Assembly: GCA_951406725.2 (NCBI GenBank)
Contig: OX597817.1
Span: forward strand, 55,986,001 to 56,050,000
From: Octopus vulgaris
Lineage: Eukaryota
Direction of reading: 5' to 3'
Length of the DNA stretch: 64,000 nt
Both the position numbers and the translations under genes were made by a program. The notes under the pieces were generated by a model, which had not been told where the DNA came from, did no database searches, and was given only the letters and a program-made list of their open reading frames with translations. This document shows positions 12,110 to 63,174 of the stretch, piece after piece. Each line of letters starts with the position of its first letter. Position 1 is the stretch's first letter.

Positions 12110-12185
<76 letters not shown>

Positions 12186-15678: not shown

Positions 15679-15720
15679 AGATAGATAGACGGACAAATAG
15701 ATAGATAGACAGACAGACAA

Positions 15721-20726: not shown

Positions 20727-20790
<64 letters not shown>

Positions 20791-21005
20791 CCTTTGTACT
20801 ATAGACATTAGGCCTGAAGTTTTGGGGAGAATACAAGTCGATTATATCGATCCCACAGTTTAACTGGTACTTAATTTATCGACCCCGAAAAGAAGAACGC
20901 CAAAGTCGACCCCAGTGGAATTAGAAATCAGAACGTTGCGACGACGGGCGAAATACCGCTAAGCATTTTTGTCCAGCGCCCTAACGATTCTGTTAGCACG
21001 CAGCC

Positions 21006-21006
<1 letters not shown>
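20791..21006 (-). mobile_element. Family B SINE flanked by (AAT)n on both sides
   Basis: ctggtacttaatttatcgaccccgaaa...aaagtcgacc; (AAT)n at 20728-20790 and 21008-21060. Confidence 0.82.
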
Positions 21007-21061
<55 letters not shown>

Positions 21062-22255
21062 TCCTAAGGAGGACAGAGATTTAAAGGAGGCGGTTGTGGG
21101 GACTAACGGCAACAGTCTCTGAAATCCACCCAAGTAATTGACTGCTAATCAGCAGTCACTATTTTCTCCAGTCATGGAATGACACTGACAAGTGGCTATT
21201 CTATACAAACTTGAATGTGTTGAATATATGCTGACATTAGAGGTGGGTGAGGCTGATGTAGGATCTGAGTGCACTTTTATTACATTTCTATAATATTACT
21301 ATATATATATTTATATTATATATTCATTTATTTATTTAGTTGTTAATATTATTTATATTTTTAACCACAAAATGGCGTTCAAATTCATGGACCAAATTTT
21401 CCGAAATTACATAATAGTTGCGATGGTCGGTTTGTTCTAGACTCAAGAATTTGACATTGGTTTTGCGTGGCATAGAGTGGCATACATGTGTACGTAACGT
21501 CACATACAATTATACACACACACACACATACACGTATATATATATATATTTATATATATATATGGAGAGAGAGAGAGGCAGAAAGACAGATATACAGATA
21601 TATATATATATATATATATACATTTTATATGTAGGCATGTATGTGTAATTAACATATACATGTTTTATACACAGACACACACATATATATGATATATATA
21701 TCATTAGGTTTTTTTTTACCTGTCGTAACTACGGCCATGCTGCAACACTGGCTTTGGCTTATATATACAAATGTATGAATATATAATTTCCATATCAAAA
21801 ACAGGTGGTTGGGGTAAACCTTGTAAAATAGAGCTACAGGTAACTAATTAGACACTCACATACCTTCACATACCTACCTATACACTTGAAAATACATATA
21901 CATACTTATACAAATAGGTATTTTAGTATGTGCAACCCGATGCACACCTGCCACATTTTGCACATACATGAGAGATTACAGAAAGCATCACCCAAATATG
22001 CATCCATAGAAAAATGTGCGTACACATATGCACCTGTACATCTAGAGGGAGTGAGGCACAAAGAGAGAGAGAATGAGAGAGAGCTTCGAAGAAGAGATGA
22101 TATGCGTATGTGTGTGTGTGTGTGTGTGTTAGTGCATGTGTTTGCGCATGTGTCTCTGTGCTTCCTTTCATTCATAAATGTAGACCTGCATACATACCTG
22201 TAGCATATGTACATACAAAGGTACGAGTATATACATACACACACATACACACACA

Positions 22256-29594: not shown

Positions 29595-29772
29595 GAAAGA
29601 TTGCAAGCCACAAAACCTTTAATTTCTCTCTTTGTTTCTTTCTGTGTTCCTGTCTTTGGAAGAGCGTAGGCTCGAAACCTTAAAGACTTTTTTCACTTCC
29701 CGAGCGTTAAACTAATACATCTGTTTGTTGTCTACACCACCTGTCTTCGTCTTCTTTTTCTGAATTCTCCTT
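29595..29772 (+). mobile_element. Penelope-like pseudo-LTR fragment with hammerhead-like motif
   Basis: gtcttt-ggaa-gagc gtag gctc-gaaac-ctt-aaagac. Second copy at 61300-61485 (-). Both abut TA-rich runs. Confidence 0.6.
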
Positions 29773-29825
29773 TACATACATATATATATACATATATATA
29801 TATATACATATATATATATAAATAA

Positions 29826-29881
<56 letters not shown>

Positions 29882-32000: not shown

Positions 32001-32431
32001 ATTACAGTTTCAAATTTTGCCACAGGAGTAGCATGTTCGGGGTAAAGGGCACGCCGAGTACATCAACCCCAGTGTTTCACTAGTACTTAATTTCATCGAC
32101 CCCCTCCTCCCCCGAAAGGATGAAAGGCAAAGACGATGATGATGATGATCAGTTAATAATAACCGTTATTGATACTTGATTACACTAAGCTGAAGCAGAT
32201 TAAATATTATTAGAACGTAGAGTGCAATCCACCTACCAGTATATGTAAACAATCCGCGACTTATTTCGATTGAGAGCAACGTCCGACTCCGACCGCTTTT
32301 TCCACTCCGATCACCTTGTACAAAGTGCATTTCTAAAAAAAAAAAAAATCCAGAAAACATCTCCGGTTTTATTTGAACTGTAAAATATTCTTCTTCCTCT
32401 CCAATGCTACTCTGTTTTTCAGTATATATCT

Positions 32432-32660
32432 GTTTCTTTATTATCCACAAGGTGCTAAACATAGAGGGGACAAACAAGGACAGACAAACGCATTAAGTCG
32501 ATTACATCTACCCTAGTGCGTAACTGGTACTTAATTTATCGACCCCGACAGAATGACATGCAAAGTCGACCTCGGTGGAATTTGAACTAAGAACGTAACG
32601 GCAGACGAAATACGGCTACGCATTTCGCCCAGCGTGCTAACGTTTCTGCCAGCGCGCCGC
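32432..32660 (-). mobile_element. Family B SINE with Tx1-like tail, full length, with TSD
   Basis: Core plus tail tttctttattatccacaagg.gctaaacatagagggg; flanking duplication tttttcagtatatatc. Confidence 0.88.
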
Positions 32661-32907
32661 GTTATTTTTCAGTATATATCCTCTAAGCCAGAGGTTCTCA
32701 ATCCATGTCCTTTTAACTCATCATTCATAAAATAATACATTTGAATGCTTGTCTCCATCAGGTTTTTGCAGAAAAAGCACAGTGCCTAATTATTCATATT
32801 TTATTACTGTATCCCATCATGGGTCCCTCTTTTGATATTTGTGTGGACAGGTGAATCTCAATAAGAAATTAACATGGGGTAGTAGTCTACGCAAATATTT
32901 TTTTTCT

Positions 32908-33110
32908 TATTTTATTCGTTTCAGTCATTTGACTGCGGCCATACTGGAGCACCGCCTTTAGTCGAACAAATCGAGCCCAGGCCTTATTCTTTGTAAGCCT
33001 AGTACTTATTCTATCGGTCTGTTTTGCCGAACCGCTAAGTTACGGGGACAGAAACACATCGGTTGTCAAGCGATGTTGGGAGACAAACACCGATACACAA
33101 ATATATATAT
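32908..33110 (-). mobile_element. Family A SINE, 3' half
   Basis: gtttcagtcatttgactgcggccatactggagcaccgcctttagtcga... Confidence 0.85.
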
Positions 33111-33694
33111 ATGTCTTTTAAGACCAACCCCAACTTCTAAATATTCTTTCCCAATGGATAGAACACGCATCATACCAATCATCCACAAGTGCTTTCTCCA
33201 GCTTCTCTTTCGACGACATATTCAAGACATTACCTTCTCTTTGAAGAACAGAGGTATAGAACTTCCCTCCTACCATTTTCATTGATAAATTCCGGAACTA
33301 AGAAAGCATCCTGATTTCAAATGTACCAATTCTACGACATTGGTCGATATCTAGTATTTTGTTTTAATATAGTTTCGAATTTTGTTCAGTAATTTATATT
33401 CCCTAATTAAAAAATAATCATTTTACACATTTCCGTTGTTATAGATCTTCACTGAAAACTCGGTAAGAGCCATTGATCTATTTAAGGCCAGTCTCAGGTC
33501 TTTCTTTTACGATACGATGAGAGGAAATGTATTATCTTCTAGATGGAACCCTACTCTATCCTACCTTAGAAGCGAACATTAGTTTATCTAAAAGGAATCT
33601 TCATTGATGGTGACTTACATTTCTGACCTCTAACAATTTTCCCAAATCATAGCGTAAATACATTTTTCTATAACTCATCTCCAACTCCAGTACA

Positions 33695-33736
<42 letters not shown>

Positions 33737-34627
33737 TACACGCACACTCACGTGCTCACAATGGCCAACGAAATTAGCTTCTGTGCAGTCACTTGACCTA
33801 CTTGAAATAGTAGCCTAATCTCTCTGAAATAACACCGTATCAAGGAAGGACATAAAAGATAACAAAATTTGAGATAAATTTGAGTTAGTCACGGCTAAAT
33901 TACTTTTAAGCTAGATCTACTTGGTCATTGAGGCATGAAATGGAGCTAAACCACAGGAACACAATTAATAGCCGAGGAGTTAGTGTTAGTAAACTAATAA
34001 TTTCAGAAATCTTCGTTTAATCGAAAGAATTCATTAATACCGCCATCAGTATATAGCTGGTAACTTAATCTATCGACTTCGGAAGCTATGATAATTCCAC
34101 CGGCGGAAATTGAAATACGACGGATAAAGGGATATAGCTAAATAATTTAAGGTATGCAGTCCAATTTTAACGGTCGATATTACTAGAAATGCAGCAGATC
34201 GAATTCAAATGAACGACACAGTTTTTCACCTCTTATGCAACATAGCTAATAATATTAATCCTACCGGAAGTATGATCTCAGACTTTTTGAAAGGTAGTGG
34301 TGATATAATCGATAATGGAAGGGTTATCAAAATGAAAGCACACGATAATTGTATAGGAAAAGTATTGTTAATTTGTACTGCATGACCTTGTTACGTCATA
34401 CTCTGATGACGTAACGAGTAGAATGGGAAATGTATGGTTCCTTACAATGGATAGATATGATGGTGATTAGTTTGCATTCAGTGGTTCTTTAGTATGACTG
34501 CCGTGGTTTGGTTGTAGATTCAGTGAAGGACGCCGTGTAGCAAGCCAACCATCCCAGGTGACCACACCGCCTACACAGGACAATAAAACAATGTGACACT
34601 CCGCCAAAATTACACACATACACACAC

Positions 34628-34664
<37 letters not shown>

Positions 34665-34753
34665 AACACAAACATATATACATACATTATACACATATAT
34701 ATAAATATACACATATATGTATGTGATATAATATGTATATATAATACATATAT

Positions 34754-34807
<54 letters not shown>

Positions 34808-34919
34808 AACATATATACATACATTATACACATATATATAAATATACACATATATGTATGTGATACACATATATGTATGTGATATAATATCTATATATAA
34901 TATATATATATATATATTC

Positions 34920-35152
34920 TTTTAGTCCTTTACTTGTTTCAGTCATTTGGCTGCGGCCATACTGGAGCACCGCCTTTAGTCGAACAAATCGAGCCCAGGA
35001 CTTATTCTTTGTATGCCTACTACATATTCTATCGGAAACTTTTGCCGAACCCCTAAAATACGGGAACATATACACACCAACATAGGTGTCAAGCGATGAT
35101 GGTGGGGACAAACACAGACACACAAACACATTCATACACACACATATACATG

Positions 35153-35188
<36 letters not shown>

Positions 35189-35350
35189 TGGGCTTCTTTT
35201 ATTTTTCCATCAACCAAATCCAGTCACAGGGCTTTGGTCAGCCCAAGGCTATAGTAGCAGACACTTTCCCAGGGTGCCACGCAGTGAGACTGAACTCGGA
35301 ACCACTTTGTTAGGAAGCAAGCTTCTTATCGCACAACCACTGCTGCACCT
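34920..35350 (-). mobile_element. Family A tRNA-derived SINE, full length
   Basis: Tail, internal microsatellite and tRNA-like head all present. Confidence 0.87.
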
Positions 35351-35557
35351 ATATATAAATAACCGTTTAAAGGTTAATCGAAAGCGCTCACACATATGGA
35401 AAAACTTCTTCCAAGAAATCTTAGTAATATCCTGATTAAAAAATTTTATAAATAATTTTTATCCTTTCTATACTTAAGAACTATATTAAGTAATTTTTCA
35501 CACAGACTTTCATATATATATATATATAAATCCGTCTGCGACGTAGATAATTTAATA

Positions 35558-35616
35558 TTTTTATACATATAGAGTCTGACGAGTAGACAGATCGTCAGAC
35601 TCTATATGTATAAAAA
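35558..35616. repeat. 25-bp perfect hairpin with 9-nt loop
   Basis: tttttatacatatagagtctgacga-gtagacaga-tcgtcagactctatatgtataaaaa. Confidence 0.92.
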
Positions 35617-35684
35617 GTCTGTCCACAAGGCTTGGCTTTCTGGTAGCGAAACCTTGGGTAACTCTATATAAAATTTTGCCCACA

Positions 35685-35884
35685 GAAACGTTAGCACGGC
35701 GAGTGAAATGCTTAGCGGTATTTCATCTGACTTTACGTCCTAAGTTCAAATTCAGTCGAGGTTGACTTTGTCATTCATCCTTTCGTGGGGGGGACGATAA
35801 ATTAATTACCAGTTGTGTACTGGGTTGATCTAATTGACTGGCACCCTCCCTCAAAATTTCGGGCCTTGTGCCTAGAGTTGAAAC

Positions 35885-35888
<4 letters not shown>
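35685..35888 (+). mobile_element. Family B SINE, third tail type
   Basis: agaaacgttagcacg...gttcaaattc...ttcatcctttcg...aaaatttcgggccttgtgcctagag. Confidence 0.82.
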
Positions 35889-35935
<47 letters not shown>

Positions 35936-38159
35936 TACATATAAACCAGGATTGGCGCTACGCAGCAGGGGCACTAAAATAGTGGAGGCGACGAACAGCT
36001 TTCGTAGAATTTTCTAATCTGATTAAGAACACAAAATATTAGTAATAAAGAGAGTAGCTGTGGTCACTCCAAGAACGAAAATGGTCGGAGGACATAAGGC
36101 GGATTCGGGAAAGGTTGGTTTGATGCTATGATATGGGAAGAGGTTTGGAGTAAAATATTTCAAATTTTGCCCCATATTACATTTACGAACTCATTGATGT
36201 ACATGATCATAAAACTATAGGTTCCTTTTTAGTAATTTAACCTGATTTTTTCGAGTGTATTTTCCGGCGGGTGAAATGAGGGTCATAGCTAAAGTATTTT
36301 GTAGAAAAAAAAAAGGTGAGTCCGTCCTTGTAAGACCGGGAGTAAGGTAGAACATTGTTGTGCTAGGAGAATATAGAGTACAGTGTGGGATCAGCCCAAG
36401 ATGCTGAATAATCTCTGGCACCGGCCCTGAATATATATAGGATTTAGAAATATATGATTAATGCAAAATATTTCGACTAATGTAACCTGGAGTATCATAC
36501 CACCACAATGTACTCGATAAATATTTAGTAAATTAAAGATATATTTAAAACTGGGTCATATAAAATACAGAAAAGGGGTCAAAGGTCTCAATTAACTAAC
36601 TGAAGTGACCACCCAAACTAGACAACTAGTTGGTGTAGTATTTAGATTGTTCAGCTCATGTTCATTAGGCCAATAGTTCAGTCCCTGCACCGAGCAGCGT
36701 GTTATGTCCTTCGTTTCAAGGCTTTAGTTCATTCAGCTCCAAACGCGTATCTTTCCACCAGTGACTGTGTCACATTGCGGATGTTCCCCTGGGTCAACAG
36801 AGACGAAGCCGAGACGGTGTCTATGTCTGCTCGCGACTAAATGGGTACCTAAAGCAATTAACGAAAGAATGGTACATGTCATCGTAATACTTCTCCTCGA
36901 GTTATGATTGGCTGTAATTTTTTTATTACATTTTATTGTATATACTGGACAAATACGTTGAAGTGATAACCAGCCAAATTGACTACTAACTGGGCATTGA
37001 GCCAAAGTAACAACTGACCGCTGTGACTACCTCTACTGGACAACTCATTAATAACAAGACAGTCTGCACAAGGAATTATCAACGTTCAGTTTATCGACAC
37101 TTTATCACATTATTAAGTTAGCGAAGCATATCACATATTATCTAACTCTATCACATTATCGAAGCATATCGCACGAAGTTGTCTAAGTTTAACACGTTAT
37201 TAAGTTATCAGAGCATACGAAATATTAAGTTATAAATGTTTATTACATTATTATTAAGTTCCAAATGAAATATAGCGACGGCAAATTTACCATTTGCCAA
37301 ACCAAAGAAGTGTTTTGTTTTTTCTGGGTTTTATCTTTTATTTTTTGTGAGGTAGCCCAAGAAGGCGGGGCGGTGCCAATCATATTAATATGGTTGGTTC
37401 TCAGCTTTCAAAATCTTCAGGTCTATAAGTGCAGCAAAAACGCAAAATGAGTAGAGAAGTTCTGTTCCAAATACTAACACCAAACATGTCCTAAGTCAAC
37501 CCTAAGCAAGAAAGCCCTTTTATCTAAGGCCTTTCTTCTGTTGCCGTCCTGCATTTGTTCAAATATGATATTTCTTTGAACTCTATATGATATTCTCCAT
37601 CACGTTCTTCCTTTTTATAAGACAATCGTTGTGACTTGAAAGAGATTTGGCTGCTATCTTTCTGAAGATGAACGACCAAATAGAGACTTGTGATGTATTA
37701 GGAGTAACACTCCTAAAATTAAAAGTCTTGCACAAAGACTCGTTCCCATGATTACAATAAAATATGAAGAATTTTCCTTGTCCTATTTGAGTAGTTTTCC
37801 ATTTATTTTCTTTTTCCTAATCAGATCAACGCATGGCTACCCTAGTTGTGTGATCGATATGAGGGAGATATCGAACAATCAGTCAATCAGTCAATCAACT
37901 AGTGTCTTTTCTAGTGCTGTGATCAACATCAGGTAATTATCAAACAATTAAGTATTGTCTATCCTTGTCATGTCAGCATCAATCAGATATCAATCAATCA
38001 GAGATCAATCAATTCTTATCTTAGTGACCAATATCAACACATATACTACTAGTGACTGTCTATCCTGGTCGTGTGATCAATACTTAACCCAATATCAATC
38101 AGTCACTGGTTGTCTACCGATGTGCTTAACAGCAATCAGATATCAGTCAATCAAGTTAT

Positions 38160-38558
38160 TCTTTTCTACTATAGGCACAAAGCCCGAAACTCTGTGGGAG
38201 GGGCCAGTCGATAAGATCGACCCCAGTACGCAACTGGTACTTAATTTATCGAACCCATAAAGGATGAAAGGCAATGTCGACCTCGGCGGAATTTTAACTC
38301 AGAACGTTAAAAGCAGACGAAATACCTGTTTCTTTACTACCCACAAGGGGCTAAACACAGAGAGGACAAATAAGGACAGACAAACGGATTAAGTCGATTA
38401 TATCGACCCCAGTGCGTGACTGGTACTTAATCTATCGACCCCGAGAGTATGAAAAGCAAAGTCGACCTCGGCGGAATTTGAACTCAGAACGTAACGGCAG
38501 ACGAAATACCGCTAAGCATTTCGCCCGCTGTGCTAACGTTTCTGCCAGCTCACTGCCT
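38160..38558 (-). mobile_element. Dimeric family B SINE (two cores, two different tails)
   Basis: Units at 38160-38326 and 38329-38558; outer duplication cagtcaatcaa on both sides. Confidence 0.85.
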
Positions 38559-38647
38559 TCAGTCAATCAAATATTAGTTACAAAATGTGCTGACTCTTAT
38601 TATTAAATATGAAGATACTTAAATATACTTTAATAACAGATGCGAAG

Positions 38648-38900
38648 GTCTTTGGCCTAGTGGTTAGAAATGTTGGACTCCCGATCATAATCTCGCGGTT
38701 TCGATTACCGAGCAGCGCATTGTGTTCATGTGCAAAAACTGCATTTTATGATGATTCAGTTTACTCAGCCGAAAATATGTGCCAGTAGCTGTTGGGGTTT
38801 AATCCCACGAACGACAGGTGTCCCGTTCAGGTTAGAAGGTTTTGCCCTCGGTCGCTTTAGAGGTAATAGAAATCGAAATGAGGAACAGCCTAATAAGTTT
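38648..38900 (+). mobile_element. Family C tRNA-derived SINE (V-SINE-like), degenerate
   Basis: tggcctagtggttag...ggtttcgatt...tgtgttc.tg.gcaa. Confidence 0.55.
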
Positions 38901-39424
38901 AAAGGTTTTTAACAAACTTTTGGACTTATTTTATACAGCGACAACCATCAATAAAAACGTGTTTTTTTGCCAATAAACACCTATTTCAGTGATATATCTC
39001 CACCGACTAGTTATTTTTAAATTTTTTTAATTTTTTTATTTTAGCTGCTTAGAATTAAGTCAGCTCTATCAGAGCTGACCTTTGTTCACAGGAATTCCAG
39101 CTGTGACCGTCTCGTCTGTTTTCTTATGTGCTGGGAGTCTAGGAGAACATTACCTAACGTGGCCTTCTTTTCGAATCGATAAAGTTGAGCAGGATTTAGC
39201 TGCTACATCTAGTAGATAAGCGATCATAATCACATAATATATATGGTTCAACACACACACAAACACACACATAAACACATACACACGCATAGGAAGTTGG
39301 TGGATTAACAGAATCGCTAGATTGACAAAAACGTATTGTGGTATTTATAAAAAGGTTATTTTCTGAGTTCAAATACCGTTGCTGTCAATTTAGCCTTTCA
39401 TCAAGCCATGGTTCACAAAATATA

Positions 39425-39620
39425 TTCCTGTCTACTAAAGGCACAAGGCTTAACAGTTTGGAGAATAGGAGATAACATCAGCCCAACTGGCACTTATATT
39501 ATCGACCCCGAAAAATGAAAGGCAAATCGACCGCAGTGGTATTTGAACTCAGAACGTAATTACGGACGAAATGCCGCTAAGCATTTTGCCTGGCGTGCTA
39601 ACGATACAGCCAGCTCATCG
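39425..39620 (-). mobile_element. Family B SINE
   Basis: ttatcgaccccgaaa..tgaaaggcaa...atttgaactcagaacgta...gctaagcattt. Confidence 0.8.
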
Positions 39621-40142
39621 CTGATAAGATGTATCACAAATAGTTTATGACTGAGGTCGGTGCGGGAGCTTCTTCCCACTCTCTTTCATGTTTAGGGTAT
39701 TAAATATCTGATAGACACCATTACAAAGGCTTATTTAATCAATATATAAAATACGTTTACAAAACCTTGATCTTGTTTTAACCGAATGAAATTTAGATGC
39801 TTCTCGACAAAGCTAAATCTATATGTTTGGCCTAGGAGAAAGATGTGAGAAAGGAAAACGAACGAATGAAGAAAAAATAAAAAGTTGCAGAAAATAAGAG
39901 ACAAATGAAAGAAATGAACGGCTGATTGTTAGGGCATTGTGTTAATTAGACCAGCATTAACAGCGCATCTGGCAAATTTCCTTCAAATCTATTTCTGAAC
40001 GTAAGTTGTTTAGACATAGAAAAGTATATATATATATATATATATATACGTTTATTTTTTTCTTCATTCAACAGTCGATGCCATGATTTTTATTTAATTT
40101 CCTTTTTTCGTTAATTTTCATATTTGTTTTGTATTTGTGGAT

Positions 40143-40259
40143 TTGGCTGTGTGGTAAGAAGTATGCTTCCAGGCTCAGTTCCATCAGGTGGAACCTTCAT
40201 CAAGTGTCTTCTATAGCCTCGGTACGATTTGGGAGGAAGAAACTGCGAGAAGCCCGTCG

Positions 40260-40310
<51 letters not shown>

Positions 40311-40460
40311 TCCACCACCGCTTGACAAACGGTGTTAGTGTGTTTAGGAACCCGTAACTTCGGCAAAATAAACCGATAGAATAAGAACCAAGTTTTAAAA
40401 AATTACGTGCTCCGGTCGATTCATACAACTAAAAATCTTCAGAGCGTTGCCCCAGTATAT
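40143..40460 (+). mobile_element. Family A SINE
   Basis: tggctgtgtggtaagaagt...caagtgtcttctatagcctcgg...gaagcccgtcg(TA/TG)n...cgcttgacaa. Confidence 0.8.
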
Positions 40461-41165
40461 ATGCAAATATGTGTGTATATATATGTGTCTATAGATAGAT
40501 AGATAGATAGAGCATGGTGCTTTTATCCTTCGGTAGAATTACCATTATCTGAAAAACCTCCAAATATTGATATTATTTCGAGTTAAAGAACGACGCAGAA
40601 TATGGAAAAGTCCAGTAGGGTTGCGGGAGGCTCTCTGGAAATATACAGCTGTTGCGATCTACGCGTTGAAGCCATTAATTGTTGATTGTAAAATCATTCT
40701 CCCTTTTTTAAGCGAAAACTAAAGTGAACCAAACCACCGCCATATTTCTGTTAACTATTTTCATGAAATCCGCGTGTCGCACAACAAGGGGTCTTCTTTA
40801 CTGGATAAACATTGCTGCCCGTTTGTAAAAAAAAAAAAAAAAGAGCCCTATATCGTAGGGGTGGCTGTTGCAAGAATGTCTTTGGCCATTCTCCGCGTCA
40901 ACGCCCTTGCAATAATATCCGCGAGTTGCGGTTAAACACATCAATTGCTCTGAGGAACACAACCTGTTACTCCGTTCCGTATTTTCTGCTGCTTAATTCT
41001 GCTCCCCACCTTTCAAAGTGATGCTATCTGAACATTACAAAATGCGTTAGAATTCTTTAGCAAAAATGAATATTTTCTTCGTATATAGCAACCAACAGTA
41101 TAAATATCTTAAATTTACGTATTACATTACATAATATAAATAAATATATGCGTGTGTGTGTGTAA

Positions 41166-41295
41166 TGGCGCGTGGCCTAGTGAGTAGGGGTGATTTTGTG
41201 GTTTCGATTCTCAGACCGGGTTATGTGGTGTGTTCTTGAGCAAAAAACTTCATTTCACGTTTGGCCCAGTCCATTCAGCTGTAAACGGGTACCTC
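41166..41295 (+). mobile_element. Family C SINE fragment
   Basis: ggcgcgtggcctagtg...gtttcgattc...gttcttgagcaa. Confidence 0.55.
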
Positions 41296-41349
41296 TGCCT
41301 TCCTACCAGGGCGAAGGTTGACCTGTTCACCTACATATATTTATATATA

Positions 41350-41394
<45 letters not shown>

Positions 41395-41682
41395 GTGTGT
41401 GTGTGCATGTGTTGGATTCATATGTATGCACACATATATATGTGTGTGTGTATATGTATGTATATATATATATGCATACACATGCTCGTGCGTACTAGCT
41501 TATACTGATGTATAACGCATATGATTGCTGACTCCAGGCTGACGTGACGCGAAACAGAAACAACAGCAACAACAACAACAACAATATCAGGACTATAACC
41601 AAAACAACCATTTAAATTCCATCAATAACAGGAAATTCTGAAGAATTATTAATGAATCGCAGATCGATACAAATTATTTAGT

Positions 41683-41708
41683 GTTGCCATAGTAACGGCC
41701 ATTTGCAT
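41683..41708 (+). promoter_or_regulatory. Candidate RFX X-box plus adjacent POU octamer
   Basis: GTTGCCATAGTAAC fits GTNRCC-N0-3-RGYAAC; ATTTGCAT lies 4 bp downstream, in non-repeat sequence. Confidence 0.35.
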
Positions 41709-42054
41709 AGTCGGCATGCCTTTGTAGTTGGTAACTCATTTTTTTTGTCAGGAATTGCAAGATGTCTGGGTCATTAACTGGGTGATTAATGGGTGCTTAC
41801 GCGCGCGCGTGTGTGTGTGTATGTGCATGTGCGTGTGTGAGTGTGTGTGTGTGTGTGCGTTTGTGTATGCTCTTCGTTATGTGAGGATTATTACAAGCAC
41901 ACATATGTGCCGCTGGGCTGGGTGCCTCGATTATGTGGGGAGAGGGATTTAATACAAATGCATTGTGATTTCAGTGGATATATATGTGTATATGTATGTA
42001 TATTTATGTGTATATATGTGTATATATGTATGTATATTTATGTGTATATATAAG

Positions 42055-42090
<36 letters not shown>

Positions 42091-42543
42091 AGGATTAAAT
42101 GCATGTTTGCATATGTAAGTGCGTATATATGTGTGCGTATGCATATGTGTGTGTGTACACACTTATAAATGCAAAAATGCATTTAATCATGTGTGCGTGC
42201 ATGACAAAACGCACACACACATACACACACACACACACAGACGCACTCGCACACATTTACACATACCGACACTACATATGCACGCGTGTGCACGCGCGTG
42301 CGTGCGTGCGTGTGTGTGTGTGTGTAATGGTTGTTTTCGCCAAAGCGGAAACTTTGTCTAACTGTAACGAGACCTATTTATCGAAGGCATGAAATTAGAT
42401 TGAATAAGGAACAAGGCCAAGTAATTAGGTCTCCTTTTTCTGTCGCCATATTCTCTGCGTATCTGTGTGTGTGTAATTTTGTAATTTGTATGTATATATA
42501 TATATTCATATGTGCGTGTGTGTGTGTATTACGTAGATATATT

Positions 42544-42589
<46 letters not shown>

Positions 42590-42592
<3 letters not shown>

Positions 42593-42974
42593 TCTTTTAC
42601 TTGTTTTAGTCATTTGACTGCGGTCATGCTGGAGCACCGCCTTTAGTCGAGCAAATCGACTCCGGGACTTATTCTTTGTAAGGCCAGTACTTATTCTACC
42701 GGTCTCTTTTTGCCGAACCGCTAAGTGACGGGGACGTAAACACACCAGCATCGGTTGTCAAGCAATGCTAGGAGGACAAACACAGACACACAAACACACA
42801 CACATACATATACATATATGCGACAGGCTTCTTTCAGTTTCCGTCTACCAAATCGACTCACAAGGCATTGGTCGGTCCGGGGCTATAGCAGAAGGCACTT
42901 GCCCAAGATGCCACGCAGTGGGACTGAACCCGGAACCATGTGGTTGGTTAGCAAGCTACTTACCACACAGCCAC
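42590..42974 (-). mobile_element. Family A SINE, full length, young
   Basis: Complete: head gtggctgtgtggtaagtag..ccgggttcagtccc; tail ggcggtgctccagcatgaccgcagtcaaatgact. Confidence 0.9.
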
Positions 42975-43279
42975 ATTACTATATATAAGATGTGTATGTA
43001 TTTATTTATGTATATCTATTCATTATCTATTTATCTTTCTCTCTCTCTCTCTCTCTTTCCCCCCCTCTCTCTCCCTACCTATTTAGCAATATATCCATCA
43101 ATATGTGTGTGTGTGTGTGTGTGTGTGCTTGTGCATTTATATATTTGTATGTATATATCTATCTATATATATATTTATACAAATAAGGATGAGATCGATA
43201 TATAAATACCGATCTTATCAGGTGGCCAGCATGGGAATAAAAATAATAAAAACCTTTCAAAAGTAATAATTATTTATAA

Positions 43280-43451
43280 TTATAATTTAGGGTATCTGAG
43301 AGATACCACCATGCTGGAAATAGCAGCCAAAACTTGACTCTAAAATGTATGAACATTGCACTCTCCTGGTGCTGTATGAATATTTAATGCGGCTTTAGAG
43401 TCAAGTTTTGACTGCTATTTCCAGCGTGATGGTATCTCTTAGATATCCTAA

Positions 43452-43458
<7 letters not shown>
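43280..43458. repeat. Fold-back element: ~65-bp imperfect inverted repeats
   Basis: ttataatttaggg.tatct.agagatacca.ca.gctggaaatagcag.caaaacttgactctaaa and its reverse complement at 43394-43458. Confidence 0.85.
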
Positions 43459-43520
<62 letters not shown>

Positions 43521-44292
43521 AAGAGGATGGGAGACTCGAACACACACACACATACACACTTTGCATTTTAATTTTTGCGTCTTCTTTTTTATAAATGGTT
43601 TTACAAATTATATTTTAAAATTACATATATGCGTGTTTGTTGTTCATGTAATTAGTCTAAGCGTTTTCATTTGTGCATGTGTGCGTGTGTGTATGTGTGT
43701 GAATCTACGCGTTTTCATCTGTGTGTGTGTGCATGTGTATGTGTGTGTGTGTGTGAGAGAGAGAGAGTTTTCTTTTTTAACCGTAAGCGGGTCGAACGTT
43801 GTTAAGTCTCGTACCGTTATTCCTATTCCATAAAAAACGAATGTTCGTTTTTGGCTGGTGAAACACAAAAGATAATTGACAAAAATAGAATTCATTTCTG
43901 CTAATATAGCAATTAGATGTTAGTAGCTCAACACAAACAAGAGAAGTTTAGGCAAGACAATAAGCCGTATGTTAATTTGGAATGCATTAACTGGTAATGG
44001 AAAGTCTATGGCGGCTGTGTGCATGCATGTGTGTGTGTGTGTTTATGAGAGAAAGCGCGAGAGAGGGGGGGCGAAGAGGTGAGTGTGGTGGGTGAGAGCA
44101 GGAAATTTCAATGGGAGATGTAAATATAAACGGTTTTTTCTGTTTTTTTTTTTTTGTTTTGTTTTGAGGTTGGGGTTCGGGCTGTCTAAAAACGAAACTG
44201 AAAGTAGCGATAAATAATAGATACAAATTTAATTGGCATGCGAGACAGGAAACCGACATTATTGTAATGGAGCCAACGACGTAACCTATATC

Positions 44293-44554
44293 TTTGGGTT
44301 CAAATTGCTAGATATAGCAGTGAAATCTTCCTCACATCAATTATATATATAATTATTTATTTATTTAGAATATAATTCACATTGTATAAATGTGTATTGC
44401 TATCGAACTAGTCCAGTGACCTACGAGGTTTGGGTTCAAATTGTTAGATATAGCAGTCAAATCTTCCTCACATCAATATATATAATTATTTATTTATTTA
44501 GAATGTAAGTCACATTGTATAAATGTGTATTGCCATCGAACTAGTCAAGTGACC
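44293..44554 (+). repeat. Direct tandem duplication, ~136-bp period
   Basis: tttgggttcaaattg...gaactagtc.agtgacc occurs twice. Confidence 0.9.
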
Positions 44555-44662
44555 AACGTCGTCATTAAACCGGGTAGAAACAGCAGCTACCCAATCTCAC
44601 TCAACTTTCAAACTTCTGTCCGGGAAGAATGGGTGCATTTTTCTCTTCGCTATCGTGTAGAT

Positions 44663-44912
44663 CAGTGTTTGTCTTTTGCCTCTGTACCCTTTTGATCCCT
44701 ATTTTATTCCCCTGGACCCTCCTAACCATTCGATGTTTCAAAAATCGTTTTATATTTTCGTAAATGAATATTATTAGGAACTGCTTAAAAAAAAATCCTT
44801 AAAATATTTTGTGTATTGTCGAAGTATAAACGATTTATTGCGCATATATTTTAGCAATAAAATCTTATGTGGAAACCTCAAGGATCATGTTGGTCCTTGT
44901 TTAGAAACTCTG
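44663..44912. mobile_element. hAT-type MITE inserted in a family D repeat
   Basis: Ends cagtgttt / gaaactctg; 8-bp TSD gtgtagat/gtgtacat. Confidence 0.6.
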
Positions 44913-45088
44913 GTGTACATGGAAAACAACATAAAAGAAAAGTGATGGACATGATTGGCGTACATTTCCATCACATGTCTGATTACCTGCAGCTGAGCTG
45001 GAACTAAGCAACAACTCGTACAACATAACGCTGTCTGAATACATAGCTATATAATTTTTTGAAAAACCAGAAAAAATAGATGATTATA

Positions 45089-45320
45089 TTTCTTTATTGC
45101 CAAACAAGGGGCTAAACATAGAGGGGACAGACAAGGACAGACAAACGCATTAAGTCGATTACATCGACCCCAGTGCGTAACTGGTACTTTATTTATCAAC
45201 CCAGAAAGGATGAAAGGCAAAGTCGACCTCGGCGGAATTTGAACTCAGAACGTAACGGCAGACGAAATACGTCTACGCATATCGCCCGGCGTGCTAATGT
45301 TTCTGTCAGCTCGCCGCCTT
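45089..45320 (-). mobile_element. Family B SINE with Tx1-like tail, full length
   Basis: tttctttattgcc...ctaaacatagagggg...gctcgccgcc; flanking gaaaaa.tagatg duplication. Confidence 0.88.
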
Positions 45321-45981
45321 CCGGAAAAATTAGATGTATAGTTACAGTGGAATGTGCTTTTGTTTTTTTATTGAAAACGCTCTATTTCAATTTTCGATTT
45401 GTAGCTAACATGATTACTATAGAGATAGTATCGATTTTTTACCAAGAGTTATGTGGAAGTAGATATTACAAGGGCAAGTTCACGAATGAAGCTATTTCAA
45501 TGGGCAACCTTGAAATTATGTCGCCACCGGCCGGGTAGATCGTTCCTGTTGCCTAGAGCCAGATGTGAGCCAGATGTAACCCGTTGCCCTGTTTAACACC
45601 CGGGTTGCTTGTTGTAGAATGCATTCATCTGAAAGTAGTTTGACGATGTCTCCAGTCTAGCGATTTCTCATGACTCGTGGCTCCCGATTCGGTCAATGCA
45701 CCGTCCTAGAAAGAGTAATATTAATGATGTTTGTTCCGGATTCGACGTTCAGAATTCGCTTCATAACGACGTTAATGTCTGACTATCAAATACCATTCAC
45801 TAGGGCGCCAGCAATGAAGTGGGGAGAAGAGACTCACTACAGTAGCTATTACTTGAGATGCGACCACCCCTTCGTAATAGTAATAAATGGCTAAATATAT
45901 ATATTTTAATAAATATAGAAATAAAATTAAACAATACACAAACATATATGTGTGTGTTGTCTCTGTCAACAATATTCTTAG

Positions 45982-46358
45982 TTTTTTACTCTTTTGCTTG
46001 TTTCAGTCATTTGACTGCGGCCATGCTGGAGCACCGCCTTTGGTCGAGCAAATCGACCCCAGAGCTTATTCTTCGTAGGCCTAGTACTTATTCTATCGGA
46101 TATCTTTTGCCGAACCGCTAAGCTACGAGGACGTAAACACGCCATCATCGGTTGTCAAGCGATGTTCACACTCACATACATATCTATAAATATACATATA
46201 AGACGGGCTTCTTTCAGTTTCCGTCTACCAAATCCACTCACAAGGCTTTGGTTGGCCCGAGAGTATAGTAGAAGACACTTGCCCAAGGTGCCACGCTGTG
46301 GGACTAAACCCCGAACCATGTGGTTGTTAAGCAAGCTTAATGCCACACAGCCACGCCT
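45982..46358 (-). mobile_element. Family A SINE, full length
   Basis: Same layout as 42590-42974. Confidence 0.88.
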
Positions 46359-46393: not shown

Positions 46394-46787
46394 AACTCCC
46401 TAGCAATGAGGGAAGGCAAAATTACAGGGATAGACTCAGTGCCAGTGCCAGTGTGAGGGAGGATTAATCTTACTCTTCTAGAATTCTGTTATTCTGCTAT
46501 TCTTTCATTCTTTCATTCTTTTAATAGTTTCAGTCCGAGGACTGCGGCCATGCTGGATCACCGCCTTAATTTATTTTCCTATCGGTTTTGTTGTCGCTTT
46601 ACGGCAGGAAGTTGGTCTATGACAGAGTCTGTAGCAGCTGTTCTTCCCTCGGTGTATCCTTGAATGGTTGACTAATCCGGAATGGTTACGGTACTCCGGA
46701 ACGGTACTCTGTACTTTGATTTGGTGACGTTTGATTTAGTGCTGCTGAGAATTAACATCAGCGAAACCCTAACACTAGTAGTAGTAA

Positions 46788-47879: not shown

Positions 47880-48113
47880 TTATTCTTTTACTTGCTTCAG
47901 ACATTTGACTGCGGCCAGCCTGGAGCACTGCCTTTTAGTCGAACAAATCGAGCCCAGGACTTAGTTATTTGTAAGCCTAGTACTCATTCTGTCGGTCTCT
48001 TTTGCCGAACCGTTAAGGTAATGGGACGTAAACACACCATCACAGGTTTTCAAGCGATGGTTGGGAACAAACACAGACACACAAACGCACACACATACAC
48101 ACATATATACGTG

Positions 48114-48157
<44 letters not shown>

Positions 48158-48300
48158 TGTATGTATGTATTATGTATACGACGGGATTCTTTCAGTTTCT
48201 GAGGCTATAGTAGAAGATACTTGACCAAGGTGCCACGCAGTGGGACCGAAACTGGAACAATGCGGTTGGAAAGCAAGCTTCTTACCACACAGCCACTCCT
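47880..48300 (-). mobile_element. Family A SINE
   Basis: Tail, internal microsatellite and head, with a small internal deletion. Confidence 0.85.
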
Positions 48301-48504
48301 ATTCGTATTGTTATCTTCATCGATGTTGTTTTCTCAACCGGGGTCCAAGAGACCCTTGAAGGTTCCATGTACGATCCTTTGGCGGGGGGTTCACAAGCTA
48401 AAAAGGAAACTAGAGAGCCACAGTGGTATTTTAAAGATCCATGGAACAATTTTGCTTTAGATATATCTATTACGAGGAACAACTGGGCTTCTTTCTCTAG
48501 GCGC

Positions 48505-48668
48505 ATGCGTGGCTGTGTGGTAAGTAGTTTGCTTACCAACCACATGATTCCGGGTTCAGTCCCACTGCGTGGCAACTTGGGCAAGTGTCTTCTACTATAG
48601 CCTCGGACCGACTAAAGGCGGTGCTCCATCATGGCTGCAGTCAAATGACTGAAACAAGTAAAAGAGTA
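48505..48668 (+). mobile_element. Family A SINE with the central region deleted
   Basis: Head joined directly to gactaaaggcggtgctccatcatggctgcagtcaaatgactgaaacaag. Confidence 0.85.
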
Positions 48669-51764: not shown

Positions 51765-51920
51765 TTCTCTCACTTGTTTCAATCATTTGACTGCGGCCAT
51801 ACTGGAGCATTGCCTTTAGTCGAACAAATCTACACTTTGTAAGCCTAGTACTTATTCAATCGGACCCTTTTGCCGAACCACTAAGTTACGGAACAAGCTT
51901 CATACCTCACAGCCACTCTT
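51765..51920 (-). mobile_element. Family A SINE, internally deleted
   Basis: Tail followed by a head remnant (cacagccac). Confidence 0.78.
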
Positions 51921-52259: not shown

Positions 52260-52415
52260 CTTAATAACTGACGAGATGCCGGGGCAGATTTCCGTCCCGA
52301 TATCCGAAACTCGGAGTTTATTATGGCAACTGAATAATTGTCACATATTGTATTACAGATAAATTCCTCTATTTACATAACATCAAGGTCTCATTCGTTC
52401 TTTTGTTGCCATAAT
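52260..52415 (+). mobile_element. Penelope-like fragment with hammerhead-like motif
   Basis: taataa|CTGACGA|gatgccgggg..tcccgatatc|cGAAACtcggagtt|tatta. Confidence 0.6.
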
Positions 52416-53035: not shown

Positions 53036-53066
53036 ATATATATATATTATATATATATATATATAT

Positions 53067-53520
53067 AGGCGAAGGAGTGACTGTGTGGTATGTGGCTTGC
53101 TTATCAACCACATAGTTCCACGTGGCACCTTGGGCAAGTGTCTTCTATTATAGCCTCAGGCTGACCAAAGCCTTGTGAGTGGATTTGTATATATATATAT
53201 ATATGTATGTATGTACGTTTGTATGTATGTATGTATGTATGTATGTATGTATGTATGTATGTATGTATGTATGTATGTATGTATGTATGTATGTATGTAT
53301 GTATGTATGTATGTGTACATATGTTCGTGTGTCTGTGCTTGCCCCTCCAACATCGCTTGACAACAGATGCTGGTGTGTTTACGTCCCCGTAACTTAGTGG
53401 TTCGGCAAAAGAGCCGATATGATAGGTACTAGGCTTGCAAAGACTAAGTCCTGGGTTTGATTTGCTCGACTACAGTATGGCCGCAGTCACATGATTGAAA
53501 CGTGTAAAAGAATGAAAGAA
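53067..53520 (+). mobile_element. Family A SINE with expanded internal (GTAT)n
   Basis: Head at 53067, ccttgggcaagtgtcttct, tail ggccgcagtcacatgattgaaac. Confidence 0.85.
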
Positions 53521-56919: not shown

Positions 56920-57306
56920 ATCTTTTACTTGTTTCGGTCATTAGAGTGTGGCCATGCTGGGGGACTGCTTTGAAGAATTTTTAGTTGAATGAATCGACGC
57001 CTCGTACTCTTATTCTACCCTGATAGTTTTTCTATCTCTTATTTTTGTCAAACTGCTAAGTTACGAGGACGTAAACACAGCAACACCGGTGGTCAAGCGT
57101 TGTTGGGGGACAAACACGCACATCGACACACACGCCAACACACTCATCTACAATGGGCATCTTTCACTTTCCAAGTACCAAATACACTGACAAAGCTTTG
57201 GTTTGCCCGAGACTAGTAGTGGACACTTTTTCGAGCTGCCATACAGTGAGACCGAACACGAAACCACATGGCTATGAAGCAAGCTTCTTACCACACAACC
57301 ACTCCT
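56920..57306 (-). mobile_element. Family A SINE, older copy
   Basis: cttgtttcggtcatt..gtggccatgctgg...cttaccacacaaccactcc. Confidence 0.78.
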
Positions 57307-60241: not shown

Positions 60242-60460
60242 TATTTCTTTATTGCCCACAAGGGGACAAACAAGGACAGACAAAGGGATTAAGTCGATTA
60301 CATCGACCCCAGTGCGTAACTGGTACTTAATTTATCGACCCGCCGAAAGGATGAAAGGCAAAGTCGACCTCGGCGGAATTTGAACTCACAACGTAACGGC
60401 ATACGAAATACCGCTAAGCATTTCGCCCGACGTGCTAACGTTTCTGCCAGCTCACCGCCT
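60242..60460 (-). mobile_element. Family B SINE with long TSD
   Basis: aggagatagtaaataatatata duplicated on both sides. Confidence 0.9.
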
Positions 60461-61009
60461 TCAGGAGATAGTAAATAATATATAATCGAAACGTGCGACG
60501 AAACAAGAGACGATGTTAGTATCTGAAGATTAGATTTTTCGAAGGTCTCCCGTTTTCTGCTTCCGAAGAGCAATTGCTGATGGAGTGGAAGGGCTAAAAG
60601 GGACAACAGGAGAATCAGTCCTTCTAAGAGAGAACAATACGTCTGCTCGCTGGAGTATGTAATTGCGTGGGTCGTTTTGCGTATAGCATTTCTTCTTAAT
60701 GAACATTATGTTGATTGTAGCAACATGTCAGATAGGCGTGCGGTGCTTTAATAATCGGTTGCATTTGTGTTTCGGTAGAGTACTCTTATCAAGGCTAAAG
60801 AAGATATGATGCCATTATGGCATTGTGGTTCTCTGTATAAGAGAGATCGGCAGGTTCTTCAATTCTGTGGGAAAGAGTAAGCGCAAAACGGTAGTTACAA
60901 AAATAATTGATGTGTGTCTGTTGTGTCTGAGGAGAGTCATTCTCTTTTAGTGCCTTATAATTTAACACACTCACCGGTAAAATTTCCACTTATTTCTTGT
61001 GCGTATGTA

Positions 61010-61220
61010 TACGTATCTTTGTGTCTGTGTTTCTCCACCGCTTGACAACCGGCGTCGGAGTATTTACGTCTCCGTACCTTATCGGTTTGGCACAGGAGAC
61101 GATAGAATGAGTACCAGGCTCTAAGAGAAACAAACTATACTGGAGTCGATTCACTGGTCTGAAAATTCTTGAAGACATTGCTCTAGCATGGCCGCAGTCT
61201 GGAACAAGTAAGAGATAAAA
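61010..61220 (+). mobile_element. Family A SINE, 3' half
   Basis: cgcttgacaaccgg...gagtcgattc...ctagcatggccgcagtc. Confidence 0.75.
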
Positions 61221-61299
61221 GATATATATATATACATACATACATACATACATACATACACAGACATACACACACAGACATATACACACACACATATAT

Positions 61300-61485
61300 A
61301 GTTGGAATTTACAAAAAACAAAACAAAAGACGAAGACGGGTGTGTAAACAACAAACAGATGTATTAGTTTAACGTTCGGGAATTGAGAAAGTCTTTTACA
61401 TTTCGAGCCTACGCTCTTTGCCAGAAAGGAACACAGAAATAAACAGGGAGAGAAAATGAAAAAAAGGTTTATTAGCTAGCGATAC
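61300..61485 (-). mobile_element. Second copy of the 29595-29772 Penelope-like fragment
   Basis: Reverse complement gagcgtaggctcgaaatgtaaaagacttt...cgttaaactaatacatctgtttgttgt. Confidence 0.7.
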
Positions 61486-61650: not shown

Positions 61651-63174
61651 CACTGGTTCCCAAAGTGGGCCATAGAAAGATCCAGAAAAAAAATGGAGCG
61701 ATAATTGTGTGACCAAAACGGGGCAATGAATGTAACGAAACAAACGGATCTTTTCATTTTGAAAGCCAGATTTTTCAGATTTTTCTAGTTAACTAAATAA
61801 TTTGAAACTTCGTATACTGGTAGAATGTGTCAAAAGAAAACAATAATTTCAACTAGTTTTTTGACAAAAATGTATTTTATAAGTTTAAACGTGGTTTAAA
61901 TCTGCGAATTTTAACCAATCGTATTGTCTGTTTTCATTTGAAATCATTAGCTGCATAGTGTTACTGTGACGTAGACAGCTATTTTGTGAGTGGGTAAGCA
62001 GTAAGCAAACAGCTGTGGTAGATGTGGTTATCATGGCAGTGGTGGTGGTGGTGGCGGCAGTGGATGATGATGATAATGATGATGATAGTAGTAGTAGCAT
62101 TGATTATGTTAGGATGTCTCATGGATGGTAGTGTTGAAGACATTGCAGAGTGTAGTGGTGGTGAAATTGGTGATTTTGAATATGATGCTGGTATTGATCT
62201 TGGGGTTGTGGTTGCAGAAGATGGTTGTGGTGGTGGCATTGGAGGTTGTAGTAATGGTTGTAGTGGTGGTTGTGAAGATGATTCTGATATTGATAGTCTT
62301 TGCATTGAGGTGGTGACAGAGTCAGAGTAAATAATAAGAGCCCAGTTAACACAAGATTCTTAAATTTCGGAGATCATAAGATAGAGAGCAAAAGTTAAAA
62401 GTTCCAATACTGGCCCAATTCCTACACCCCAGATTCTTCAACTATTTTATAAGAAAGAGGTTAATGGCAAGATAGGGATTCAGCTTAAAAATAAATTGTA
62501 TAACAAAAAATACATAAATAAATTACTGCTCCAACGATGTAATTTTAGTATGTGTATATGTATGTATGTGTGTGTGTGTGTGTGTGTAAGCAATGCAAAC
62601 AATGGAAAATAATTTAAACACTCATTTTATATATACTAAGACTTTCAAAAAGAATTTAGCTATTTAGGATCTGCACAAATTTTATATATACTCCACGAAG
62701 TTTGAAAGTGTTTAGTTACGATAAGCGGATGTTTACATTTTATGTTTACGTTAACTACGTCACAAAATAGCTGTTTACGTCACAGTAACAATATTTTGAG
62801 AGGCAGTAAATGATATGAAGTCGAAAGAAAGAATATCATCGGTTAAAATTCGAATTATTAAACAACGTTAAACTTAGAAATTACAATTCCGTTTTCATTT
62901 TGGTTTACAATTATGTTTTCTTTTGACACATTCTACCAGTATACGAAGTTTCAAATTGTTTAGTTAACTAGGAAAATCTGGCTTTCAAAATGAAAAGATC
63001 AAAACAAACAAAATAAAGGGTTCATTAAGTTAAGTTTTATTTGTAAAATACTGTTGTTTGGAATTTGCTGCAGAAAATAGTTTATGTCTGTGACGGTGAG
63101 TGGTGTGGGGGGACACTAGGAATGTGGCCTTAAAACCAAGGGGGCGGTAGCCTGAAAAAGTTTGGGAACCACTG
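61651..63174. mobile_element. Non-autonomous hAT (Charlie-like) element
   Basis: TIRs cactggttcccaaa / tttgggaaccactg; 8-bp TSD atctagag/acctagag. Confidence 0.82.
61746..63000. mobile_element. Nested MULE-like non-autonomous element with ~95-bp TIRs
   Basis: gatcttttcattttgaaagccaga..ctagttaactaaa.aatttgaaacttcgtatactggtagaatgtgtcaaaagaaaaca is inverted at 62914-63000; 9-bp TSD gaaacaaac/aaaacaaac. Confidence 0.75.

Follow-up and report, generated by a model that had tools for sequence, protein, structure and literature searches.

LINE-derived tails beside one shared two-stem module in short interspersed elements of Octopus vulgaris

How can the body of a short interspersed nuclear element (SINE) come to carry tails from more than one long interspersed nuclear element (LINE), and does a hairpin at the joint help to bring this about? 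The question is raised by a stretch of 64,000 nucleotides (nt) of the Octopus vulgaris genome (GenBank assembly GCA_951406725.2, contig OX597817.1, positions 55,986,001 to 56,050,000, forward strand), referred to here as the window. The window is microsatellite-rich with 35% G+C, and all copy counts below are those of this single 64-kb window. A first-pass annotation described two SINE families, A and B, that share a GTCGA-N5-TCGAC hairpin followed by alternative tails, and proposed that the hairpin acts as a template-switch point. As judged from the sequences, tail swapping on one shared body is well supported. For the hairpin itself, the analysis tends slightly toward a boundary rather than a switch.

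The exact palindrome GTCGA-N5-TCGAC occurs six times in the window against 0.00 expected, each time within a SINE copy (three of family B, one of C and two of A), and the coordinates and anatomy first reported are correct. Anchoring on the palindrome with mismatches allowed gave 21 module copies (4 B, 5 C, 2 D and 10 A), and in the remaining 15 the palindrome is decayed or variant. The module lies at the 3' end of the SINE body. In it, an A-rich linker is followed by two adjoining stem-loops, H1 and then H2, of which H2 is the GTCGA hairpin; H1 had been missed before. The module is about 48 nt long in B and C and about 60 nt in A, as in these two copies:

38392 to 38440, minus strand: shared module in a B copy, with the A-rich linker, H1 at 38409-38423 and H2 at 38392-38408
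46042 to 46098, minus strand: shared module in an A copy, with the H1 loop 11 nt longer, as is typical of A against B, and H2 at 46042-46058

Profile comparison shows that the module is homologous between A and B/C, as had been supposed. A profile of ten B, C and D modules matched the A modules at 46060 (28.3 bits, expectation value (E) 9e-8) and 32978 (20.9 bits, E 2e-5), and its best score over 20 shuffled windows was 7.7 bits. All ten A copies were in its match list, five of them with E below 0.02. The reverse profile, built from nine A copies, reached the C module at 12813 and the B module at 38410 with about 18 bits (shuffled best 12.5), a result that is weaker yet positive. When the majority letters of A and B are compared, 12 of 12 positions agree in the H2 stem, as do 2 of 5 in its loop (post hoc Fisher 0.015). 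In the H1 stem three positions differ, and pairing is retained in all of them. The identity of the H2 stem and the pairing-preserving differences in H1 point to selection on a folded RNA. Module covariation over the whole structure was equalled in 19-28 of 500 shuffles by three measures and in 169 and 433 of 500 by the other two, values that related copies inflate and that are not proof. No two-sided base change was found among the four consensus pairs of H2. In full-length folds H2 forms well (probability at least 0.78) in five of eleven copies and is weak or partial in six. In three of the seven A1 copies (A1 and A2 being subfamilies of A) H2 is weakened by a common change, its isolated energy going from -6/-7 to -3.1 kcal/mol. 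Matches to Rfam over the whole window were nearly all microRNA models on microsatellites, none at gathering score among the 150 of 276 matches listed. One B/C region had no Rfam match and one A region had two at chance level; thus a known ribozyme or RNA family does not account for the module in these regions.

Two side observations concern the module. The B body at 38327-38560 (minus strand) holds three GTCGA and two TCGACT words, and the 3' arm of H2 there has an alternative partner 30 nt upstream at about equal energy, so that a two-state fold is possible. A decayed module-like copy at 33990-34110 (minus strand) has H1 and an unrecognisable H2 (E 0.0002 over the first 31 profile positions).

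The SINEs are short, dispersed and non-coding, with defined ends. They measure about 210-235 nt in B and C and 370-430 nt in A, and 22 copies on both strands are listed here. B, C and D have a common head and core:

38327 to 38560, minus strand: family B SINE, full length, with tRNA-like (transfer RNA-like) head, core, module and Tx1-type tail
32432 to 32664, minus strand: family B SINE, full length, 16-bp target duplication
45088 to 45321, minus strand: family B SINE, full length
60243 to 60462, minus strand: family B SINE with a 15-nt tail deletion and a 22-bp target duplication
38157 to 38326, minus strand: family C SINE, 5'-truncated, with a B-type body and the third tail, fused behind a B copy
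35681 to 35889, plus strand: family C SINE (third tail)
20787 to 21008, minus strand: family C SINE within an (ATT)n array
12754 to 12963, minus strand: family C SINE, old copy
39423 to 39621, minus strand: family C SINE with a deletion across H1-H2
10516 to 10722, minus strand: old B-head SINE with a D tail (weakly C-like)
32005 to 32136, minus strand: SINE with a D tail, 5'-truncated, followed by (ATT)n

Family A has an unrelated head:

45985 to 46358, minus strand: A1 SINE with tRNA-like head, CORE-like motif, microsatellite, mid part, module and CR1-type tail
42590 to 42978, minus strand: A1 SINE, full length
47880 to 48300, minus strand: A1 SINE with weakened H2 and an internal deletion in the left half
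34925 to 35345, minus strand: A1 SINE with weakened H2
32905 to 33100, minus strand: A1 SINE, 5'-truncated, with weakened H2
51765 to 51920, minus strand: A1 SINE with two internal deletions
53066 to 53515, plus strand: A1 SINE with an 11-nt deletion directly after H2
48498 to 48668, plus strand: A1 SINE, head joined to the H2 3' arm and tail via microhomology
56920 to 57305, minus strand: A2 SINE, with 11-13 extra nt between H2 and the CR1-type stem-loops, as in all three A2 copies
61005 to 61220, plus strand: A2 SINE, 5'-truncated
40140 to 40458, plus strand: A2 SINE lacking the 3' end

The difference between the A and B heads, noted earlier, was borne out: at E up to 3, A copies gave no match to the B-head profile, nor B copies to the A-head profile. 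The mid part of A had no match to the B head. Both heads contain A-box-like and B-box-like words by eye; ARAGORN returned no tRNA gene in the window, and Rfam no tRNA in one B/C and one A region. Body identity is 87-93% in B and 59-83% in most C and D copies, and this greater divergence suggests that C/D is the older form. Target site duplications of 22, 16 and 12 bp flank three insertions that contain a B copy. They are short or unclear for A and C; around six tested A copies, flanking matches reached 4-11 nt at the longest and were mostly simple repeats. Clear duplications at B insertions and not at the tested A copies would be consistent with different integrating enzymes. Beside the C copy at 39423-39621, an old 3'-truncated B-head copy (plus strand) adjoins it tail to tail, forming an inverted pair at 39300-39621.

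Three classes of tail follow H2: a CR1-type tail in A, an L1/Tx1-type tail in B and a third in C and D. Partners of the first two are present in the window:

1066 to 4085, plus strand: CR1-group LINE with an endonuclease and reverse transcriptase (RT) frame of 977 amino acids without stops; its 3' end at 4026-4068 matches the A tail
460 to 642, minus strand: 5'-truncated copy of the 1066-4085 LINE; 476-519 matches the A tail
46500 to 46715, minus strand: second CR1-group family, 5'-truncated 3' end; 46521-46567 is the best A-tail match
14497 to 15680, minus strand: L1/Tx1-type LINE, 5'-truncated, in a (TATC)n array, with the zf-RVT end of open reading frame 2 and a long 3' untranslated region (UTR); 14498-14545 matches the B tail

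An A-tail profile finds the three CR1-group ends at E 3e-5, 3e-6 and 4e-9, with matches that begin at profile position 2; the best shuffled score was 7.7 bits. The B tail matches the last 48 nt of the 14497-15680 LINE at E 5e-7, from +17 after H2. Of eight SINE-LINE tail pairings set against 1000 shuffles each, seven had their score reached by none and the eighth by two. The A tail had no match to the Tx1-type end, nor the B tail to the CR1-type end. The homology between tail and LINE enters the module by at most 2-4 bases in every pairing, and the module is absent from the LINE donors in the window. The A tail and the CR1-group LINE end have a common fold of two stem-loops, and changes in the last stem are paired. 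The A tail starts 3 nt before the first stem of this two-stem-loop structure, and the LINE side of the A junction is thus also a structure boundary.

The CR1-group LINE matches Pfam PF14529/PF03372 and PF00078 only, with no C-terminal zinc finger. It has a short 3' UTR with two stem-loops (z -3.1) and ends in (ATCA)n, and its uninterrupted frame of 977 amino acids makes it probably young. It stands back to back with the 460-642 copy of its 3' end, and a (TA)n array lies between them. The L1/Tx1-type LINE carries PF13966 (zf-RVT) and is bordered by (TATC)n on both sides; the window copy has no RT, and its homologues carry RT and zf-RVT. The CR1-group label is taken from domain layout and motifs rather than from a tree. 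The same holds for the L1/Tx1-group label, for which the RT motifs of the homologue P0123 also look L1/Tx1-type. Among the matches listed, the closest named relatives of the two LINE proteins come from Argonauta hians (64% and 58% identity), and none of the 120 listed homologues of the CR1-group LINE is a named clade reference. A second, decayed L1/Tx1-type 3' fragment lies at 8697-8919 (minus strand), with a very old B-head SINE at 8501-8606 in its 3' UTR region. A lone 28-nt piece at 21728-21755 (minus strand) resembles the start of the CR1-type tail (E 0.003) and is of SINE or LINE origin.

The third tail was found at the four sites where it had been reported (38157-38204, 35843-35889, 20787-20833 and 12754-12792) and in a fifth copy at 39423-39469. 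A search of LINE 3' ends for its partner, suggested at the outset, found none: the C/D tail had no match outside SINEs in the window, and none of 16 pairings with four LINE ends was significant. Scanning 87 of 383 candidate frames gave no further transposable element domain and no host gene. Four of ten pairings between D and C tails stood at 9-14 of 500 shuffles, which is suggestive of one tail class. Two other likenesses were examined and set aside. Homology between the C tail and the left half of A was rejected (one of 14 pairings at 2 of 500, profile search negative). The B tail, over its first 35 nt, weakly matches the A mid part where that begins TG-rich (E 0.0065), and this was treated as low-complexity.

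Where, then, do body and tail meet? In the SINEs, A1 and A2 part from B and C at +1 after H2, and B may have up to about 8 further bases in common with one C copy (12754-12963). On the LINE side, homology begins at about +2 in A1, at +2 or +13 in A2 and at +17 in B, and a few matching bases span the A1 junction (alignments reach -2). The junctions cluster near H2, within about 0-8 nt of its foot on the SINE side, and do not form a single point. The statement that tails come right after the hairpin accordingly fits A1 but neither the LINE-homologous part of the B tail nor A2 with its extra bases. Only two or three independent tail gains are represented, too few for a claim of a hotspot.

Breaks in single copies are unfiltered by selection and for that reason a better test of the role of H2 than the junctions of master copies. 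Four 5'-truncated copies end 84-140 nt upstream of the H2 end, none of them within the module. The alignments gave seven internal deletions or fusions (48498, 53066, 51765 head-to-mid, 47880, 60243, 39423 and 38157-38560), from which smaller A-head deletions were left out. Two of these (48498 and 53066) have their break at the H2 foot or in its 3' arm, with microhomology in each case, and five break elsewhere, counting among them the 39423 deletion, which removes H1-H2 sequence. The only clear product of two templates is the full B copy with the truncated C copy at 38157-38560, which joins mid-head to 3' end. A single 12-bp target duplication encloses both, and the pair is likely a chimera from one insertion. 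The SINE-side junctions thus show some clustering near the hairpin, and most copy-level ones lie elsewhere. Together with donors that have no H2 and so few tail gains, this leaves the proposal of H2 as a template-switch point without support. The related proposal, that one SINE body recruits several LINE enzymes, fares better: tails of at least two LINE groups stand on one module, which makes recruitment of several enzymes likely.

The reading that we favour, by a small degree of confidence, is that template switches joined the LINE tails and that H2 marks the boundary of what selection kept rather than a demonstrated trigger. The families would be octopod RNA polymerase III SINEs assembled from modules, and the oldest form here would have had a B-type head, the module and a C/D tail. 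In non-LTR (non-long terminal repeat) elements, reverse transcription begins at the RNA's 3' end. At least twice, a LINE reverse transcriptase may have copied the last 45-60 nt of its own RNA and then switched, aided by a few matching bases, onto a SINE RNA that bore the module, which would have yielded a new master. Family B with its L1/Tx1-type tail and family A with its CR1-group tail would be such masters, each copied by the enzyme whose 3' end its tail mimics. On this order of events, which we infer, synthesis starts on LINE RNA, from which the module is absent, and H2 is not a pause site on the donor; it could act only as a landing site or as the boundary of the retained part. Junctions would come to lie at its foot because only products with the whole module and the whole LINE recognition structure, minus the old tail, became successful masters. 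The boundary is preferred since the A junction has a structure edge on each side, the module bears signs of selection as a folded RNA and the unselected junctions are not piled at H2.

Several points weigh against this preference. The weakened H2 in three of seven A1 copies indicates that selection on H2 is not absolute, and whole-module folding was no better than shuffles in all three regions tried (z -0.4 to -1.2). Over the 136 nt from B box to 3' end, the post hoc probability that two junctions fall in an 8-nt window at any of four stem feet is 0.014; it is 0.07 for an 18-nt window and 0.11 for two junctions merely within 8 nt of each other. Junction clustering is thus tighter than uniform landing, which a true hotspot explains equally well. 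The LINE clade names depend on domain layout and motifs rather than on a tree, and the third junction cannot be placed, as no partner of the third tail was found in the window.

Could H2 instead be an active landing site, where 3'-to-5' trimming of the SINE RNA stalls at the foot and frees a 3' end there, or the stem exposes a patch, so that LINE reverse transcriptases jump there repeatedly? The SINE-side junctions of A1, A2, B and C all lie about 0-8 nt from H2, which forms with high probability in five of the eleven full-length copies. The rearrangements 48498 and 53066 break there, and the possible tail-only fragment at 21728-21755 starts at +1. The idea has also been published for another domain as an undemonstrated hypothesis (PMC5804259, in excerpt). 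Set against this are the four truncated copies that end outside the module, the five of seven copy-level junctions elsewhere, the clear chimera that joins mid-head to 3' end and the microhomology in both H2 rearrangements. H2 also shows no two-sided change in its four consensus pairs, is weak or partial in the other six folds and is tied to only two or three independent events; we consider an active landing site unlikely. A bolder form, in which the module is an undescribed conserved SINE domain with its last hairpin as a reusable landing site, and three LINE clades joined independently at one stem foot within a single lineage, a rare sequence-specific Tx1 tail among them, seems to us improbable to a like degree. 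Two readings of the module's origin appear still less probable. One takes it for the old tail of an RTE-type LINE, with H2 as a recognition stem-loop near the ancestral 3' end onto which new tails were added, so that junctions would lie there without any special signal for switching. Its length fits LINE-derived tails (35-61 nt in bivalves; PMC11481361, in excerpt), LINE pieces are known inside SINE bodies (PMC5786205, in excerpt), and RTE is described as an abundant and active clade in octopus in the excerpts of PMC13282606 and PMC8967140. RTE/BovB 3' ends in the supplement of PMC5786205, as far as excerpted, have GGGTCG and then a stem-loop closing with CGACT, and by eye both words bound H2. 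The likeness, however, spans about 12-18 letters with gaps, half of them palindromic, in vertebrate elements and by eye without a score. No RTE copy was found in the window (no transposable element domain in 87 further frames), and the stretch between H2 and the new tails shows no remnant of a terminal repeat. We take a relic tail for the most doubtful of the readings.

Hardly more probable is an import of the module into family A as a cassette, by double template switch or gene conversion into a CR1-tailed element, so that A and B would share a moved module and not a body. Upstream of the A module, 35-45 nt align in register with 3' UTR sequence immediately upstream of the tail in the 46500-46715 LINE in four of ten A copies (3, 11, 23 and 38 of 1000 shuffles). 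The A2 extra bases align to the same LINE from +2, and the B/C controls are negative (none of eight pairings). The signal is missing from six of ten A copies and from all ten pairings with the other CR1 family, and a profile of the A segment misses the 46500-46715 LINE at E up to 20. The copies are not independent and were tested post hoc. Returning to the hairpin as a switch, a 64-kb window neither proves nor excludes it, and the mechanism is undecidable from this window.

How does this system compare with those already described? Published work is cited here from excerpts of the papers. In the CORE-, V-, Deu- and Meta-SINEs, as here, a piece of the body is conserved while heads and LINE-derived tails vary (PMC4824008, PMC4758252, PMC11481361, PMC5804259), and one body has partners in several LINE clades. 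Conserved domains whose tails vary were described, and template switching was proposed for them (PMC4824008). Tail exchange and a recombination hotspot have been listed as undemonstrated hypotheses, and a conserved hairpin, the Inv domain, was suggested as a template-switch signal (PMC5804259). The octopus system works like these conserved-domain superfamilies, and the concepts of tail swapping and of a hairpin signal are already published (PMC4824008, PMC5804259). It differs in that three tail types, two of the partner LINEs and junctions a few bases from one stem are found in one window, and in the nature of the shared piece, a two-stem module of 50-60 nt that forms the body's 3' end and was unmatched to the described domains examined. 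Mosaic SINEs are also known in other molluscs (PMC4758252, PMC11481361), alpha and beta SINE domains have been named (PMC3531059), and LINE pieces in SINE bodies have been reported together with a mollusc core word (PMC5786205).

The mollusc core word, CCTTGGG, matches the window four times against 0.29 expected, three of them directly after the head of A copies (word from PMC5786205, in excerpt). tRNA-Core is given as a main SINE class of octopus (PMC8967140, in excerpt), and family A is probably an octopus CORE-SINE on this sequence likeness. The CORE-SINEs OR1 and OR2 and the OK family (Ohshima and Okada 1994, via excerpts of citing papers) are tRNA-derived octopod SINEs, as here, and were compared by description only. 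MetaSINEs also have a tRNA head followed by a central piece and variable tails (PMC4824008, in excerpt). The first-pass annotation saw a likeness to Meta in the B core. By eye, about 20 nt at the start of the module do resemble the 5' part of the bivalve Meta domain (17 of 21 letters with one gap in the best row). The word from its 3' half, taken from bivalve members, has 11 window matches where 8.94 are expected, and none of them lies in a body on its sense strand. The Meta domain directly follows the tRNA head, whereas about 25 nt intervene in B/C and about 200 nt in A. With bivalve members as the only reference, a 66-bp domain at 61-86% identity was not found, nor was one in the Meta position, and MetaSINE membership was rejected. 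Family B resembles SINEU (PMC4494074) and three L1-tailed SINEs (PMC3747384) in its L1/Tx1-group partner. L1-tailed SINEs made up only 3 of 58 SINE-LINE pairs in a 2013 review and were called rare for the clade (PMC3747384). The link of SINEU to Tx1 came from target preference, and the excerpt reports no 3' sequence common to the two, whereas in family B about 45 nt of the LINE's 3' UTR recur in the SINE; microsatellite targeting is known for Tx1 (PMC4494074).

Octopus repeat classes have been published, in the excerpted parts without SINE anatomy (PMC13282606, PMC8967140). The literature compared held nothing specific to these SINE families or the module; Repbase, Dfam, the SINEBase files, Ohshima and Okada (1994), Gilbert and Labuda (1999) and Albertin (2015) lay outside this comparison. 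Families A, B and C are very likely in repeat libraries already, and the module may be present in figures or supplements of published work. Two pattern scans of genome contigs for stray copies gave none in either, in a search that did not extend to eukaryotic genomes, the metagenome or viral contigs.

Why SINE bodies keep conserved domains is an open question, and of the hypotheses proposed none is given as shown in the excerpt of PMC5804259. Published examples mostly come from comparisons between distant species. In the present case one genome contains several tails on a single module together with their donors, which would allow base-level mapping of junctions and a count of rare chimeras unfiltered by selection. 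SINEs account for 11.6% of the Octopus vulgaris genome, and among recently active families 893 of 900 are unclassified (PMC13282606, in excerpt). A scheme of module and tail would aid repeat annotation. The sequence-specific Tx1-type tail is of modest novelty in itself. If a landing-site domain were true, it would offer the first system for a direct test of the tail-exchange hypothesis for conserved SINE domains.

Some other elements of the window are recorded here. A composite at 11105-12290 (plus strand) has a tRNA-like head, then a fragment in (AAT)n with Pfam zf-RVT only, which its motifs suggest to be R4/Dong-like, and then a hammerhead-like core. At 12230-12280, CTGATGA and GAAA stand in a three-way fold that is hammerhead-like; Rfam gave no hammerhead match. 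Two small repeats of two copies each (29600-29859 with 61260-61483, and 7152-7213 with 52353-52413) were not assigned to a family. Inverted repeat pairs are found at 61747-61989 with 62760-63000 (about 240 bp) and at 13253-13418 (48 bp), and these are possibly the ends of non-autonomous DNA transposons.

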